From sequence record NC_028903.1: a stretch of DNA of 64,000 nucleotides. The stretch is one strand, 5' to 3'. This document shows positions 1 through 63,590 of this stretch, piece after piece. The notes under the pieces are model-generated. The model searched no databases. It was not told the origin of the DNA and worked only from the letters and a program-made list of their open reading frames with translations. The first letter of the stretch is position 1; each line of letters begins with the position of its first letter. This DNA is from Escherichia phage 172-1. A program made the position numbers and the translations under genes.

Positions 1-21
1 CCCGATTGGGCAGCCTTTTAT

Positions 22-273
22 TTATTTCTGTTTTAAACCAAGCAGACGGTTTTGTAAAAACTCATCTTCTGCGTTATAAAGGAATGCGAACATTAATTCC
101 TTAGCCATATCTCTTGAGCAATTAAGACACTTAGAGATTTGCGTTAGTTGCATGTTGCGATCAGTGTGTTCCATCAAGGCAATGCGAATGATCTCTCGCA
201 TACCTATTACATGGGTTGTTTTAACCGGCATAGGTCCAATTACCTTGCTTATTACGGATGGCTGACATTGCAT
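22..273 (-). CDS. hypothetical early protein
   Basis: 83 aa ORF at distal end of leftward early operon; no recognisable motif. Confidence 0.35.
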   Translation of the reverse strand: MQCQPSVISKVIGPMPVKTTHVIGMREIIRIALMEHTDRNMQLTQISKCLNCSRDMAKELMFAFLYNAEDEFLQNRLLGLKQK

Positions 274-718
274 GAACCCAGAAGCCTTCCAGTTTCAGAG
301 CACCGTTAGCTACTGCATCCATACGTTCAGGGCGGTTCATACGTTTGGTTGATACTTTCATACCTATCTCTCTTTGTTAGTGGAGGCATTATTGCCAGTT
401 GATATAAGGGATAGCCCTAGTCAGTAGACTAATCCTGACCGCGTACTCATTGCCGACCTTCTCTGCCTAAGAGTTCAGGTTCTAGAGCTATCTCTTATTC
501 CAACTGGTGAAGACTCCCTACCCCTAGGAAGTCTCCTGAATCCCAAACCAATACGTACCCCTACATATCAGAAAGTCTTTCGAAAATTGACAGGTTTTAG
601 TCTAGCACCGGATGTTCGAGCAAGCTCTCCCTAGCGGTGTGGCATATGCCTGATTAATAAGTTAATGAGGAACACCCTCACATAGCCCTCTGATAAACAC
701 AAGGGCTATAAGTCGGTG

Positions 719-937
719 TTACTTTTGAGATAAACACAGATCAGGACGTGGCATAACAGTTGTTGATAGACCAAAGACTTCAACATAACCACTGTTCAAG
801 TTAGCAGCTTTACACAGACCATCAGGAGTTTTATCTTCTAGCATCAGCCAGAAACGTCTATCGTAAGAGAAAACATCACCACCCTTAACGTCTTCTGCAT
901 TTGCATATTTAGGATAATCGACTACTTTAATTTCCAT
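719..937 (-). CDS. small early protein, GDVF-motif paralog family (member 1)
   Basis: 72 aa; shares KGGDVF-type N-terminal motif with four neighbouring ORFs. Confidence 0.5.
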   Translation of the reverse strand: MEIKVVDYPKYANAEDVKGGDVFSYDRRFWLMLEDKTPDGLCKAANLNSGYVEVFGLSTTVMPRPDLCLSQK

Positions 938-947
938 CTAATTGCCC

Positions 948-1166
948 TTATTGATAAATAGAAAGGTGGATGAGTTTATTCACATGAGCGAAGTTAGGTA
1001 GGATTTGCATCTCATTGTTGAAGATATTAAAACAACGAACCCCGCCCTCTACAGCATAAGCAGATTTCTGAAACAGACTACCTCCCCACACAAATACATC
1101 ATGTGTTTCAAGAGATCGTAACTGAACAGCCTCGTCAACAACCTTCTTTTCGATGTTCATGTTCAC
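948..1166 (-). CDS. small early protein, GDVF-motif paralog family (member 2, divergent)
   Basis: 72 aa; THDVFVWGG motif resembles the family core; tandem position. Confidence 0.4.
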   Translation of the reverse strand: MNMNIEKKVVDEAVQLRSLETHDVFVWGGSLFQKSAYAVEGGVRCFNIFNNEMQILPNFAHVNKLIHLSIYQ

Positions 1167-1414
1167 TTCCGATTAGTAACTACTGCATCATGGATAACTG
1201 AAACAGGTAAGTTTGAATCTAGCTTCATTACTTGATTGGTGCTTAAACTAAGCACTACACAACCATTCCGAAGATCAGTCTCTGACACATGTGGTGTATA
1301 TAACTGAACGATCATGTAATAATCAATACATGTTGCCTTAACTTGGAACACATCGCCAAGTTTCAAATCACCCACACGCAATTCTTTAGCTTTCATCTCA
1401 AGATCAATCTTCAT
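1163..1414 (-). CDS. small early protein, GDVF-motif paralog family (member 3)
   Basis: 83 aa; LRVGDLKLGDVFQV motif; 4 nt overlap with neighbours. Confidence 0.5.
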   Translation of the reverse strand: MKIDLEMKAKELRVGDLKLGDVFQVKATCIDYYMIVQLYTPHVSETDLRNGCVVLSLSTNQVMKLDSNLPVSVIHDAVVTNRK

Positions 1415-1640
1415 CTTTAGCCTCTATGTTGGTTATGTGGAGATCACTACGCACTTGGCAGACCTCATCCCGTTTAATAGGCATGAGCTTTCCAGTAATC
1501 ACATCAACACAGTTCACATAATTTTCTGCGTATAGAGTGTCAGTTCTGATATAAAGGAACCCTTTAGATTCAAACAGAACCCCCGGCTTCATGTTGTTTA
1601 AGCGAAGCATGGTACGATCAGATTTAATATTGACTTTCAC
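1404..1640 (-). CDS. small early protein, GDVF-motif paralog family (member 4)
   Basis: 78 aa; NNMKPGVLFESKG motif in same relative position. Confidence 0.45.
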   Translation of the reverse strand: MKVNIKSDRTMLRLNNMKPGVLFESKGFLYIRTDTLYAENYVNCVDVITGKLMPIKRDEVCQVRSDLHITNIEAKDED

Positions 1641-1642
1641 TG

Positions 1643-1864
1643 TTAATCCACCTTATTGGTAAGTCGAGCGTTAACTTTCTTAACAACTTCATGAGTGAAA
1701 CCACCATAAATCTCACCAGTTGAAAGGTTAATATATTTTCTCTGATCTCCTGATTTGCTATAAGCACTTGAGGACATATAATAATCACTCGGGTTCAGAG
1801 GGAACTGGAACACATCACCTGATTCTAAATCCCCAAGAGTTAAAACCTTTGGGGCGTTGTTCAT
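1643..1864 (-). CDS. small early protein, GDVF-motif paralog family (member 5)
   Basis: Start moved to internal ATG (MNNAPKV...) just after stop of upstream gene; LTLGDLESGDVFQF motif. Confidence 0.5.
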   Translation of the reverse strand: MNNAPKVLTLGDLESGDVFQFPLNPSDYYMSSSAYSKSGDQRKYINLSTGEIYGGFTHEVVKKVNARLTNKVD

Positions 1865-1865
1865 A

Positions 1866-2162
1866 TCAATTATCACTGTTAATCTCCTGCTGCTTAGCAA
1901 TAGCCACTCGCAAGTCTTCATTAGCACGAGCAAGGCGCAACACTTCATGATTGAGATTCTGAAGACGCTTGTTTCTGTCTTCAACTTGCATAATAAGATC
2001 GTTAAGAGTTGCTTTAACTTTCTCATTATACATCTCATCCACTCGAACTAGGGACTTATACATTCTCTCCCAGCTTGCTGCTTTGTTTCTAAGGATAATA
2101 AATCCTAGAACGCTGATAGTTAAACAGAGTACAAAAAGGAATTTATATACTTCTAAAGTCAT
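1866..2162 (-). CDS. membrane-anchored coiled-coil protein
   Basis: 98 aa; N-terminal hydrophobic helix then heptad-like charged region. Confidence 0.45.
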   Translation of the reverse strand: MTLEVYKFLFVLCLTISVLGFIILRNKAASWERMYKSLVRVDEMYNEKVKATLNDLIMQVEDRNKRLQNLNHEVLRLARANEDLRVAIAKQQEINSDN

Positions 2163-2361
2163 ATTATTTACCCTTTATCAGAGATTAAAAGTAATATTAT
2201 TTAAGTAAGTTATATTTAGTAAACTTATTTTCTAAGAAATTTTCAAAGGGTCTATATACAGAGCATTACCCATAGTCCCAGAATACTACCATCTTTTTCA
2301 ATAAATTTACTAAGTGGTTGGTTTATAAAGGAATTTAGTTTGTCAAATCTGGCACTAGTGA

Positions 2362-2751
2362 TTATTCCCTAGAGCTATTATCGAACACTAAATCGCCACA
2401 ATACATAGGATTGGCATACCATTTTGGCACCCCTTCGCTCTTACTCTGAAAGTAAGTCCCACTATACAGCGGAACATAATTCTTCTTAAGGGCACGTTTA
2501 GCAAGTCGCTCGCTTTCTCCAATGGCTTGCTTAGTCATCGGATTTTTATCACGAATCAGCTTTACATAACGTTTATAAGGTTTCTCCTGTTTTAATAGTA
2601 CCGGAATCCACTCAAACTGGTTCTTTTGTCTTATCACCTGTTCAGCGGTCAGTTTTCGTTGGGCCATTCTATTTATCACGGTATCCGCAACTAAAGCCTT
2701 ACATGCGGTTGGCTGGTTCCCTGCCTCATAATAAATAGTCAATGTCAACAT
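2362..2751 (-). CDS. SleB/CwlJ-like cell wall hydrolase
   Basis: 129 aa; IYYEAGNQP...VADTVINR and NQFE motifs typical of SleB hydrolase domain. Confidence 0.55.
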   Translation of the reverse strand: MLTLTIYYEAGNQPTACKALVADTVINRMAQRKLTAEQVIRQKNQFEWIPVLLKQEKPYKRYVKLIRDKNPMTKQAIGESERLAKRALKKNYVPLYSGTYFQSKSEGVPKWYANPMYCGDLVFDNSSRE

Positions 2752-3206: not shown

Positions 3207-3232
3207 AAAAAAGCCCCAGCCGTAGCCGGGGC
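3207..3232 (-). terminator. rho-independent terminator-like hairpin
   Basis: GCCCC-a-GC / GC-c-GGGGC stem preceded on plus strand by A6, giving a T6 tail on the minus transcript. Confidence 0.45.
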
Positions 3233-3381: not shown

Positions 3382-3403
3382 AAAAAGCCGCTCAAAGGCG
3401 GCT
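3382..3403 (-). terminator. rho-independent terminator
   Basis: AGCCGC / GCGGCT stem with 6 nt loop, U-run on minus transcript; follows gene 3484..3927. Confidence 0.5.
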
Positions 3404-4695: not shown

Positions 4696-4729
4696 TAAAA
4701 GAAAAGGCGCTACCCGTTAAGATAGCGCC
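4696..4729 (-). terminator. rho-independent terminator
   Basis: GGCGCTA / TAGCGCC stem, 10 nt loop, UUUUCUUUU tail on minus transcript; follows 4754..5653. Confidence 0.55.
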
Positions 4730-4753
4730 TCATGTTTATTATAATCGTATTAC

Positions 4754-5653
4754 TTATACTGCCTGACGTGCCGCCATAATCTCAGCTGCCTTGCGCAATA
4801 CTTCTTCCTCTTCTTCTTTCGCAGCTTGTTCGGTACGGGTAGCAACCGTTGAAGAGATACGACCGCGCAGACTTTCTAACTTCTCCTGAATAGCCGCAAT
4901 AGTCTTTTCCATTTCATCAGCGTATGAATCGAGCGATTCCAGCTCCTTGCTTGATGCGTTCATCAGATAATCGTCTGAGATCGCTACCGTTGAGGCCGTG
5001 ACTTTCTTGATGAGTGAATCAAAGGACTTTTTAACCTTGCCCACGTCTTCACTCAAGGCAATAGTGTTATCACTGGTAGCGCCATTGCGCTCATCAGCCA
5101 GCAATTTGGCTTCAATACGGATTGCATTCAAGCGTTCAACTAAAGAGTAAATATCCTGATTAAAATCTTCCTTATTTTTCGCCGGGATTTGAAGGTGGGC
5201 CGCCACGTTGTCATTGCAACCTTTGAAGAAGTTAGGATTATCGACTTCAATTTCACGGCCTAAAGCAAAGTTTTCGAAAGCATTTGACCAGCGAGCGCGG
5301 TTTTGTTCCATTTTGGCCTTAATTTGCGCTTCTTTCGCATCTTCTTTCGCTTTCGCTTCACCTTCCAGATTAATCCACTTTTTACGCCCATTTGCCGCAT
5401 CGGTGTTGAACTTGATAGGAGTTAAGAAAGTAATTGCAGTGGCGATCACGTCCATATCGCGGAAACGTTCGGTTAACAGAAAATCAACTGCCGACTGCAA
5501 TACGTCCAGCTTTTTACCGTTACTGCGGAAGTGCTGCAAGTGCCCTAACAGAAAATTAGAAACATCCTGTTTAATCGCCGCGTTATTGCTGCGGATATTG
5601 TTAGCCAGTGCGTTAAAGCCAGATTCTTTTACCAGATTGAAAATTTTAGCCAT
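4754..5653 (-). CDS. first early protein after leader (function unknown)
   Basis: 300 aa; ATG at 5651-5653 with GGTGA RBS; helical, charged C-terminus. Confidence 0.55.
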   Translation of the reverse strand: MAKIFNLVKESGFNALANNIRSNNAAIKQDVSNFLLGHLQHFRSNGKKLDVLQSAVDFLLTERFRDMDVIATAITFLTPIKFNTDAANGRKKWINLEGEAKAKEDAKEAQIKAKMEQNRARWSNAFENFALGREIEVDNPNFFKGCNDNVAAHLQIPAKNKEDFNQDIYSLVERLNAIRIEAKLLADERNGATSDNTIALSEDVGKVKKSFDSLIKKVTASTVAISDDYLMNASSKELESLDSYADEMEKTIAAIQEKLESLRGRISSTVATRTEQAAKEEEEEVLRKAAEIMAARQAV

Positions 5654-5754
5654 GATATTCACCTTTCAATTGTAAGGGCACTATGCCCCGCTCTCTATGA
5701 GCTTTTTAAGTCGCCATTGACTTATCAATAAACACTCATCATTAAGTAATTATT

Positions 5755-61274: not shown

Positions 61275-61478
61275 TTAGTAGAACGAACGAATTTCATCCC
61301 ACACTTGTTCCTGTTCTTTCCTATAAAAAGAAAGTTGGGTCTTGAACATCTCCACTGATGATTCAAAGTTTTTAGATTGTGCAGCTTCAACGAAACGTTC
61401 ATGTCGGTTGATTTTGCACCGTAGCATTAAATACTTGGCTTCAAGTCTCCGAAGAGCCTGTCTTTTCTCAAGATTCAC
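61275..61478 (-). CDS. hypothetical protein
   Basis: 67 aa. Confidence 0.3.
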   Translation of the reverse strand: MNLEKRQALRRLEAKYLMLRCKINRHERFVEAAQSKNFESSVEMFKTQLSFYRKEQEQVWDEIRSFY

Positions 61479-61887
61479 TTTTCAGATACTCTGACCAGTC
61501 GCCAGATTCAACCAGAACGTCTTGTTCTTCGTCAATGTGATAAATCCAAGCGATAACAGTTTCACCTGAGTCCAGCTTAACGGCAATCTGGGTGCGTTGA
61601 TAGAAGCTATCTTCAGGGCTACGTTTGTTGTAACCTTCCAGTCGGTCATATGGACCTTCCAGACCTGCTTTGTCAGTAGCAAACACTTCTACACGAACAG
61701 GCTTATTGTTATTGCTGTGTGCGAGAGAGATGCTTGGGAAGTAGGAACCACCATAACGGAACAGATCGAAGTTGTCTTCAGTCCAACCTTCACCGATTGA
61801 CTTAGCACCAGCTCGGTCATTAACTAAATAGTTAGCTTGACCACGACGAAGAGAACCATAAGTTGCTACGTAAATTACTTCTGACAT
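61468..61887 (-). CDS. AIG2/GGACT-like gamma-glutamyl cyclotransferase-fold protein
   Basis: 139 aa; N-terminus VIYVATYGSLRRGQANY matches the YGTLKRGxxNH signature of GGACT/AIG2-like enzymes. Confidence 0.55.
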   Translation of the reverse strand: MSEVIYVATYGSLRRGQANYLVNDRAGAKSIGEGWTEDNFDLFRYGGSYFPSISLAHSNNNKPVRVEVFATDKAGLEGPYDRLEGYNKRSPEDSFYQRTQIAVKLDSGETVIAWIYHIDEEQDVLVESGDWSEYLKSES

Positions 61888-62393: not shown

Positions 62394-63590
62394 TTAGTAG
62401 TTTACAACAGTGCCATCATTCAGGGTAAGGCTATTAATCTGCAACACACGACCAAGCTGACGATCACTAATTGGTGCGTTCCATCCAGAGCGGTAGAAGT
62501 TACGACCACAGAAGAACAAGATCACATTACTTGCTACAGTCGAACCGTTTTCAGGATGCTTGATGTTAGCGATATAATAGCCACGACGTAGATTACGACG
62601 GGTTACCGGGTTGATCTCTAACCCTTGTTCTTCAACTTGCATTGTTTCAGGAACAGGCTCCGAAGACTCTTCAGCAACTGGCTCAGCTGACAATGCGAAG
62701 TTCTCGTCATCTGCTGATTCAGCAAATTCTTCTTCCACTTCTTCAACAGGCAGTTCGTAAGCAACGCGGTAGTCAGGATCAACACCAGAGAAGCTCTTAA
62801 CAAACTCAACAATATTATGAGTGTAAGTTTCTAGAGTTGTTCCAGTCAGGCCCGGAGCTGTATTAACTTCCAGAACCCAAGCGTTAGTACCTTTGCTAAT
62901 CAGGTCAACAGCACCGAAGTTCAAACCCAGAGCAGATACAGCTTTGTGAGCTTGAATCAGAACTTGATCAGGAGGCGCTTCAGTGAAGGAGTTAGAATAA
63001 ACCCAACCAGTGTGATGGTTACGAATATCTTCACGATATGTTGACAGATCGCGATAACCGTTACGACGAATCTTCTTCTGAACGTAAGTGATAACGCCTT
63101 CGAACACATGAACACGCCATTCACGACGTGGGCCTTGAATACCTTTGGTATATAGAGGGGCACGGGAAATACCTTCCGTCGGAAGACGAACAATAATACC
63201 TTCACCGGAGTGCCCATTTAGGATTCCACGCTCATAAACAATTTCGTTCTGGTTCCAATCTGAAGCCACACTCTGACTTACGGTATACTCTACAGTAGAT
63301 ACTCCAGCAGCTTCCAAAGTTTGAAAAGCTGTAACCTTATTAGCTGCTCGGTTCAATGCCACTACAGAGTTCAATACAGTTGCCCCACCAAAGAAAGAAT
63401 CGTTGTATCGACGGTTTCCGTAGTTGACAACAATATCACCAACCCGAGAACGATAACGAGAACCCTCTGATACCAGAGACATTACGTTAGCGTTTAAGCG
63501 GAGTTCCTGAATCTTAGTGTTAATTGCAGAAGTAAGTTCACGAACTGAATCAGAAGGGCCATAAGGAAGAACACGGATACGAGTAGTCAT
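62394..63590 (-). CDS. ATP-grasp ligase (RimK/GshB-like) with C-terminal extension
   Basis: 398 aa; GHSGEGIIVRLP, REWRVHVFEGV, and WVLEVNTAPGL motifs typical of ATP-grasp amide ligases; acidic linker plus ~90 aa C-terminal domain. Confidence 0.65.
   Translation of the reverse strand: MTTRIRVLPYGPSDSVRELTSAINTKIQELRLNANVMSLVSEGSRYRSRVGDIVVNYGNRRYNDSFFGGATVLNSVVALNRAANKVTAFQTLEAAGVSTVEYTVSQSVASDWNQNEIVYERGILNGHSGEGIIVRLPTEGISRAPLYTKGIQGPRREWRVHVFEGVITYVQKKIRRNGYRDLSTYREDIRNHHTGWVYSNSFTEAPPDQVLIQAHKAVSALGLNFGAVDLISKGTNAWVLEVNTAPGLTGTTLETYTHNIVEFVKSFSGVDPDYRVAYELPVEEVEEEFAESADDENFALSAEPVAEESSEPVPETMQVEEQGLEINPVTRRNLRRGYYIANIKHPENGSTVASNVILFFCGRNFYRSGWNAPISDRQLGRVLQINSLTLNDGTVVNY

Follow-up and report, generated by a model that had tools for sequence, protein, structure and literature searches.

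Five tandem early genes of a Kuravirus encode divergent paralogues with a predicted SH3-like barrel fold and a possible host-directed binding role

Five small open reading frames (ORFs) lie back to back on the minus strand of a 64,000-nucleotide stretch of Escherichia phage 172-1 (NC_028903.1), which is referred to here as the window. They are named W5, W4, W3, W2 and W1 in the order of transcription (Table 1). The analysis supports with high confidence that these are real, homologous early genes, that their products share an SH3-like fold and that they belong to a family with ten members per genome. The fuller explanation, in which five co-transcribed early genes encode homologous SH3-like barrel paralogues that act as host-directed binders, is given an even chance, and the host-directed function taken by itself is held more tentatively. 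By sequence comparison, the window can be placed in Kuravirus (Gordonclarkvirinae) as a phiEco32-like podophage; positions 500-2300 are 99.0% identical to Escherichia phage NJ01, and 94 Kuravirus-like records match. NJ01 position 75305 is the equivalent of position 500, which makes the five ORFs NJ01_131-135, and the W5 and W2 proteins have identical counterparts in phage 172-1. Kuraviruses have elongated C3-type heads and are common broad-host-range coliphages that are used in therapy work.

The preliminary description of this DNA had proposed that the five ORFs are tandem paralogues of a single family, and this was borne out by hhalign and by both broad and independent profiles. Scored against 1000 shuffles, Smith-Waterman alignments were significant for W3-W5 (z 11.5), W3-W4 (4.8), W1-W3 (4.3) and W1-W5 (3.9), and at most marginally so for W2-W5 (3.0). 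The other pairs, including W1-W4, W4-W5 and the remaining W2 pairs, were non-significant, which on its own would agree with chance or untranslated frames that carry a coincidental motif. Alignment of orthologue profiles with hhalign gave 1e-13 for C3-C5, 1.6e-7 for C1-C5, 2.8e-5 for C1-C4, 2.7e-4 for C1-C3 and 6e-4 for C3-C4, and the W2 orthologue profile (C2) reached 5e-3 at best, across 23 residues. A word-indexed search with the five-sequence alignment recovered 111 relatives, all from Kuravirus-like contigs and falling into four clusters (W3+W5, W4, W1 and W2); a second such search with a broad alignment returned Kuravirus proteins almost exclusively. An independent profile was built from 61 distant metagenomic representatives, each scoring less than 40 bits to any Kuravirus array protein and having no BLAST hit to the W2 cluster. 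This profile matched W3 (2e-16), W4 (3e-16), W1 (4e-15), W5 (8e-14) and W2 (2.8e-6, 24 bits) over their full length, and matched no other ORF of the 64-kb window; the top score among 2000 shuffled sequences was 10.6 bits (E 0.06). Because each ORF is matched at full length and the controls are low, all five are homologous, with the support for W2 lying only at the level of profile and fold. The broad family profile gave E-values down to 1e-18 among its matches on the array proteins (down to 4e-16 for W5), and cross-hits between PHROG families also tie the five ORFs together.

The homology extends over the whole length of the proteins and follows the pattern MKI...L.xGDVF...YYm.T....V.L.TG....V...A.L.I. 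A shared N-terminal motif had been described earlier; the quoted motifs do occupy a matching relative position (residues ~18-26), but they are not an isolated N-terminal element. Similarity beyond this short motif, named at the time as the point to check, is full-length and by profile significant beyond shuffles. At the DNA level, W4 and W5 have in common a 25-nucleotide (nt) stretch (1624-1648 and 1860-1884, 80% identical) that covers the Shine-Dalgarno spacer and GTG start, GATTAACAGTGA, and W3 and W5 have 29 nt at 76% identity over the GDVF codons. These two stretches are the sole DNA-level traces of ancestry in the array.

The five consecutive ORFs of the preliminary description are all present, although their strand had been left unstated and two of the starts need correction. 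W5 most likely starts at GTG 1876 and not at ATG 1864, since its orthologues start with MIIDMNN or MKIDMNN and an AGGAG Shine-Dalgarno sequence lies 8 nt upstream of GTG 1876, whereas none precedes ATG 1864; the NJ01 annotation agrees with the resulting form of 77 amino acids (aa). For W2, ATG 1160 is probably the start in preference to GTG 1166, because the orthologues are 70 aa long and the profile alignment begins at MNIEKK. A Shine-Dalgarno sequence was found before each corrected start. The neighbouring ORFs had been said to overlap by 1-4 nt; instead there are gaps of 2 nt (W5/W4), 2 nt (W3/W2) and 10 nt (W2/W1) and an 11-nt overlap (W4/W3), and a 4-nt overlap arises at W3/W2 only with GTG 1166.

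The ratio of non-synonymous to synonymous substitution rates (dN/dS) was estimated by the Nei-Gojobori method for the window against Bas90, phiEco32, SU10 and Paul, a comparison of few short sequences. It was 0.03-0.10 for W1, 0.04-0.12 for W4, 0.09-0.27 for W3, 0 for W2 (6 synonymous and 0 non-synonymous changes) and 0.36 for W5 (against SU10). The orthologues are under purifying selection and the genes are truly coding. Since dN/dS is low in all orthologue sets, chance ORFs can be ruled out, and a coincidental motif in untranslated frames retains practically no probability. Against it stand the full-length profile matches with clean shuffle controls, dN/dS far below 1, the Shine-Dalgarno sequences at the starts, confident and concordant structural models, and hundreds of homologues of the same length.

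Table 1. Features of the array, its surroundings and the further family members. Positions are those of the window unless NJ01 is named.
Feature	Position	Strand	Product or length	Counterparts	PHROG match	Remarks
W5	1643..1876	-	77 aa (MIIDMNNAPK...)	NJ01_135; identical to 172-1 gp006	phrog_9955 group (W3/W5), 1.4e-31 (77-aa form)	First family member of the array in transcription direction; GTG 1876 start (most likely) after AGGAG
W4	1404..1640	-	78 aa	NJ01_134; orthologue of phi32_115 and SU10_0113	phrog_16423, 2e-49	GTG start after AAGGTGG; acidic C-terminus (EAKDED); best-conserved array member
W3	1163..1414	-	83 aa	NJ01_133; same slot as phi32_114 and SU10_0112, at only 55-69% identity (deeply diverged alleles)	phrog_9955, 3e-42	Nearest paralogue is W5
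W2	948..1160	-	70 aa from ATG 1160 (72 aa with GTG 1166)	NJ01_132; not in phiEco32, SU10 or Paul	phrog_33163, 8e-55	Most divergent of the array: GDVF to HDVF, NLxTG to NIFNN
W1	719..937	-	72 aa	NJ01_131; orthologue of phi32_113 and SU10_0111; not in phage Paul	phrog_6570, 3e-32	Last gene of the array; 94-97% conserved
98-aa protein	1866..2162	-	98 aa	NJ01_136	phrog_12154	Context, non-family; hydrophobic N-terminal segment, coiled-coil-like rest
AT-rich intergenic spacer	2163..2361	-	199 nt			Upstream of the operon segment
ORF-free stretch	362-718	-	357 nt			Directly downstream of the W1 stop; conserved among Kuraviruses
Terminator-like hairpins	3213-3232, 3386-3403, 4704-4731	-				GC-rich, with T-runs; upstream of the array
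302-aa gene	4754-5662		302 aa	SU10 CDS120 orthologue
Start of peptide-ligase-type cluster	61468-61887 and 62394-63590	-		NJ01_092-104		Continues past the window end
NJ01_110, 111, 112	NJ01 69835-70576 (locus L001 531-1272)					Family members in tandem
NJ01_117	NJ01 71712-71933 (locus L001 2408-2629)					Family member nearest to the family consensus
NJ01_125	NJ01 73842-74066 (locus L001 4538-4762)					Family member

The family is much wider than the array. When 1.84 billion cluster representatives were searched exhaustively with HMMER, 738 proteins passed the threshold of E<=1e-3. Most of these are 66-85 aa long and align from the first residue to the last, and by this sequence criterion the family is estimated at no fewer than ~700 clusters at 50% identity, phage-wide. 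One Vibrio phage protein is a clear sequence member, and phrog_6570 is matched by 120 of 133 aligned members, most of which match several of the family's PHROGs. A tblastn search with two typical metagenomic members (P0147 and P0122) against isolated phages gave no match. Tandem fusions of two domains occur in 13 of the 150 best representatives. Two large repeat proteins among the profile matches, P0113 (cadherin-like) and P0171 (DUF7507), were false positives and vanish with the independent profile. Outside the window, the metagenomic protein P0121 (478 aa) has an SprT-like metalloprotease domain followed by five strongly basic barrel repeats, each matched by the independent profile at E 3e-7 to 2e-5. 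The barrel thus also occurs as a repeated module beyond the stand-alone phage context, where it possibly binds DNA.

Within the 64-kb window, the family profile run over all ORFs found no sixth member. Five more members lie in NJ01 just beyond the window (NJ01_110-112, NJ01_117 and NJ01_125), and a profile scan of NJ01 from 58.0 to 69.4 kb found none. An NJ01-type genome is accordingly counted, by sequence, as having ten members, all in the early block. The regions examined in other phages gave 8 members each for phiEco32 and Paul, 9 for SU10, 6 for ECBP2 and no fewer than 8 for Bas90.

Across 128 diverse members, conservation is limited to hydrophobic residues and glycines. The conserved positions are M1, I3, G20, V22, F23, Y30, V45, L47, G54, V65 and a C-terminal A-x-L-x-I, and from the sequence pattern they are inferred to form the core and the turns. 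Among these members, no polar residue is close to invariant in a manner that would hint at catalysis. The isoelectric point (pI) of the family has a median of 5.2, being below 6 in 66% and above 8 in 10% of members, and for the five proteins of the array the pI is 4.9-6.7 and the net charge -2 to 0.

Structure prediction and a fold search, which the preliminary description had suggested, were carried out; they point to an SH3-like barrel and recover viral relatives of the family. The AlphaFold2 model of W5, built from 115 sequences, has a predicted local distance difference test score (pLDDT) of 89.5, a predicted template-modelling score (pTM) of 0.74 and five strands. The model of W2 (pLDDT 87.2, pTM 0.73) keeps this order of strands and adds a long one at the N-terminus. 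In the models, five antiparallel strands form a small barrel that superposes on known SH3/Tudor/KOW domains, and the array proteins are thus predicted to be five-stranded beta-barrels of the SH3/Tudor/KOW-like type with an added N-terminal strand. When searched with Foldseek against predicted viral structures (BFVD), the W5 and W2 models recovered overlapping sets that include N4 gp21, PaP3 ORF65, EP335 and ECBP2 proteins. Both models match N4 gp21, ORF65 of Pseudomonas phage PaP3, a protein of phage tf and three proteins of EP335, as well as proteins of uncultured phages and of phages of Serratia, Erwinia, Yersinia, Klebsiella, Proteus and Vibrio.

The array is orthologous to and syntenic with phi32_113-115 and SU10_0111-0114. 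Leftward-transcribed early blocks have been described in phiEco32, SU10 and YF01 (PMC8948821, PMC4281155, PMC9965538), and in SU10 the block comprises coding sequences (CDS) 69-125 (PMC4281155). Because these syntenic genes lie inside the published early blocks, the array genes are assigned by sequence to the Kuravirus early class, transcribed by the host sigma-70 RNA polymerase; the earlier designation as early genes is in this way upheld by location. Three sigma-70 promoters lie between CDS120 and CDS121 of SU10 (PMC4281155), and the CDS120 orthologue in the window is the 302-aa gene. By this placement, the main early promoters would lie further upstream of the array, before this gene. The AT-rich spacer may hold an internal sigma-70 promoter, with matches at the level of the consensus only. 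The phiEco32 middle/late promoter motif TAATGTATA, read by the phage sigma factor gp36, is not enriched in the window and does not occur upstream of the operon; its one match with 1 mismatch in the operon (2057-2065, inside the 98-aa gene) is at chance level. Among the proteins detected in SU10 phage particles, a virion-enriched sample, there was no family member, which is weak evidence that the family proteins are not virion proteins.

The 98-aa gene upstream of the array keeps its synteny in NJ01, Bas90, phiEco32, SU10 and Paul. Its stop and the W5 start overlap by 11 nt, which places both genes in one tightly packed operon segment. This protein is labelled "DNA helicase" (phrog_12154, NJ01_136, Bas90_0114), and W2 (NJ01_132) is labelled "putative two-domain glycosyltransferase"; both are mislabelled, with no Pfam, NCBIfam or sequence support for either name. 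Downstream of W1, the conserved ORF-free stretch folds as RNA more stably than shuffled sequences (z -3.0; 0 of 100 shuffles as good), and a strong hairpin, AUAGCCCUUGUGUUUAUCAGAGGGCUAU, stands right after the W1 stop. An Rfam search over window positions 1-2500, this stretch included, gave no match; it could be a terminator, a processing site or a small RNA. Terminator-like hairpins number 8 in the first 6 kb against 3.6 expected from shuffles, and the three on the minus strand upstream of the array may mean that early transcription into the array is attenuated or segmented. At the window's opposite end begins a cluster (NJ01_092-104) of gamma-glutamyl cyclotransferase-like, RimK-like ATP-grasp, glutamine amidotransferase, amidoligase and COOH-NH2 ligase genes. 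It is co-directional with the early small genes, and several of the SU10 orthologues have been seen by mass spectrometry.

The composition of the array differs among related phages. NJ01 and the window have W5-W4-W3-W2-W1, Bas90 has a different 85-aa member followed by W4-W3-W2-W1, and SU10 has a W5-type gene, W4, a W3-type gene and W1. In phiEco32 only gp115-gp114-gp113 are present, Paul has only the 85-aa member, W4 and W3, and ECBP2 has three other members. A comparison of copy number among related phages had been proposed earlier, and the number does vary, from 2 to 5 in the array and from 6 to 10 members per genome overall. The variation consists of the presence or absence of W2, W1 and W5 and, where W5 and W3 stand, of replacement by alleles that have diverged deeply. 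At these two positions dS is high, and saturated between some phages, which suggests that old alleles have been exchanged and not that point evolution has been fast.

The paralogues themselves are ancient. The best in-genome sibling of each NJ01 paralogue scores 19-37 bits, compared with 22-39 bits for the best distant metagenomic relative. As siblings are no closer to each other than to members from unrelated phages, the array is an old assembly of long-separated lineages and not a recent amplification, contrary to the earlier description of the genes as tandemly amplified. The same description had called them fast-diverging under arms-race selection. That reading has partial support at most: phages do differ in which genes they have and in two of the five positions, but the orthologue dN/dS of 0-0.36 (mostly <=0.12) argues against rapid diversifying evolution of the orthologues.

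The favoured interpretation is that the array proteins are non-enzymatic protein-binding modules. A stable mini-barrel scaffold would present variable surface loops and strand faces, each suited to a different partner protein. The host sigma-70 RNA polymerase would produce these proteins in the first minutes of infection, and they would then sequester or redirect host factors, in host takeover, in the neutralisation of defence proteins, or both. Whether a single paralogue is needed, or can be exchanged for another, would depend on the host, and this would account for the patchy distribution of the paralogues in phages that are otherwise ~90-95% identical. Joint action of neighbouring copies is hinted at by the fusions of two domains that occur elsewhere. 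A protein binder is preferred to an enzyme or a nucleic-acid binder because conservation is limited to hydrophobic residues and glycines and pI is mainly acidic, and a binding scaffold is the best-supported reading when conservation pattern, acidity, early location, patchy gene content and fusions are taken together. Gordonclarkvirinae show a remarkable resistance to restriction-modification systems for which no inhibitor is known (PMC11990801), which is a circumstantial reason to consider an anti-defence role. No match was found to defence-related models in PADLOC-DB, Pfam or NCBIfam, no dedicated anti-defence library having been searched. It is a bolder and rather unlikely extension that the ten-member family is a modular inhibitor toolkit, in which each paralogue, possibly paired, neutralises a different host defence or housekeeping protein. 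Such a toolkit would jointly explain the near-complete defence resistance of Gordonclarkvirinae and make the scaffold, with N4 gp21, PaP3 ORF65 and hundreds of metagenomic clusters, a widespread and hitherto unrecognised superfamily for anti-defence and host takeover.

Several observations weigh against host-directed binding. Across Kuraviruses W1 and W4 hardly vary, as is unusual in an arms race, and purifying selection with ancient divergence would be just as expected of proteins with a conserved housekeeping task in the phage cycle. The models were built on alignments dominated by Kuravirus sequences. The top structural neighbours of the fold are ribosome, translation and RNA-polymerase-associated domains, which leaves room for a nucleic-acid or ribosome-linked role, and the fusion of SprT to basic repeats in P0121 suggests that the domain can bind DNA elsewhere.

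A role within the phage itself, as adaptors, chaperones or regulatory subunits that bind its early and middle products (those of replication, of nucleotide metabolism or of the amidoligase/ATP-grasp cluster), is judged unlikely. It would accord with strong purifying selection, the constancy of W1 and W4 and the age of the paralogues, and the array shares its direction and its early block with the genes for amidoligase, glutamine amidotransferase, ATP-grasp and gamma-glutamyl cyclotransferase proteins. Ribosomal protein S6 has an acidic C-terminus that is lengthened by RimK-type ligases, and the acidic tail of W4 recalls it, although the idea of a peptide-ligase substrate has no support beyond this likeness. 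However, some members are absent from close relatives whose genomes are otherwise retained (phiEco32 is without W5 and W2, and Paul without W1 and W2), and the family occurs in many unrelated phages that have no other early genes in common with Kuraviruses. The first 22 kb of N4, for instance, has gp21 alone, with no amidoligase cluster annotated there.

Regulators that bind nucleic acid or the ribosome, as KOW/Tudor/Sm-like barrels tuning phage or host translation or transcription, are an improbable alternative. Weak Pfam EFP_N matches on the G-x-V-F hairpin of four members and two giant proteins, the basic repeats of the SprT-like fusion and the basic NJ01_111 (pI 9.6) speak for it, whereas the family, window proteins included, is mostly acidic or neutral. 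The EFP_N matches are non-significant (best E 0.037, in 4 of 133 members). Descent from EF-P/KOW, to which the L.xG.V...Y...NL.TG pattern and these matches had pointed, was rejected: hhalign of the family profile against residues 1-69 of E. coli EF-P (domain I) gave a probability of 0.2%, and no chain of the KOW, EF-P or Tudor type came up when PDB sequences were searched with the profile, so that the resemblance is at fold level only. More generally, no sequence-level link to the fold neighbours was found in Pfam, NCBIfam, PADLOC or the PDB profile search. The prospect that the proteins are VapX-like antitoxins neutralising host toxins or abortive-infection nucleases, a sub-case of anti-defence, is slight; identity to VapX is 14%, the similarity is at fold level with no sequence-level link, and no VapD-like or other toxin gene is adjacent to the array.

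Nothing mechanistically surprising has emerged so far, and the genes are good, cheap candidates for host-interaction screens. About ten separate groups of "hypothetical proteins" are merged into one superfamily defined by a predicted fold, which accounts for 10 small early genes per NJ01-type genome and extends to N4-like, PaP3-like and many uncultured phages. At 70-85 aa, with five in one 1.2-kb block, the proteins form a compact candidate set for interaction, toxicity and defence-inhibition screens, and natural 2-, 3-, 4- and 5-copy variants are on hand for comparison. Should they prove to be target-specific binders on a common mini-barrel, they would be of use as a library of small inhibitors provided by nature; should their function be a core one for the phage, the result is ordinary annotation progress.

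The family had not been recognised in the preliminary description, and searches of Pfam, NCBIfam, PADLOC and PDB sequences likewise returned no named family, leaving only PHROGs of unknown function. The genes were already deposited as hypothetical proteins, and split PHROGs were the only record of the family. What is new is that these are merged into one superfamily, that a fold is assigned to it, that ten copies are counted per genome and that N4 gp21 is linked to it. The array proteins are true members of PHROGs 6570 (W1), 33163 (W2), 9955 (W3/W5) and 16423 (W4), which they match at full length (E 3e-28 to 8e-55); PHROGs 7832, 8365, 7431 and 12612 are related. PHROGs thus split one superfamily into ~10 families, all of "unknown function" and without fold or name. 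A literature search on N4 gp21, the phiEco32 paralogues and Kuravirus anti-defence found no functional data. Both a profile match (E 1e-17, full length) and the predicted structure (Foldseek template-modelling score 0.71-0.77) place N4 gp21 (74 aa) in this family, at only 13-24% identity to the window proteins. Like the array proteins, it is small, comes from a virulent coliphage and is encoded before the replication genes, but it is a single copy in the region scanned (the first 22 kb of N4) as against ten copies in NJ01-type Kuraviruses.

The SH3-like barrels of translation and transcription that were compared, namely ribosomal protein L2, EF-P domain I/KOW, Spt5 KOW, CarD and the Tudor-like domain of UvrD/PcrA, have no significant sequence or profile similarity to the phage family. 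Neither the glycine motif of KOW nor the PGKG loop of EF-P occurs in the phage proteins, which are mostly acidic stand-alone domains and not basic modules bound to nucleic acid. VapX, the antitoxin of VapXD (PDB 6zn8), offers an analogy of mechanism and not membership; unlike VapXD, the array has no partner toxin gene nearby and no relationship at sequence level. Other multi-copy families of small early proteins in virulent phages are likewise small, encoded in early operons, patchy in distribution and of unknown or host-directed role. Unlike them, a single fold family here provides 10 small early genes per genome and is common to very different groups of phages.

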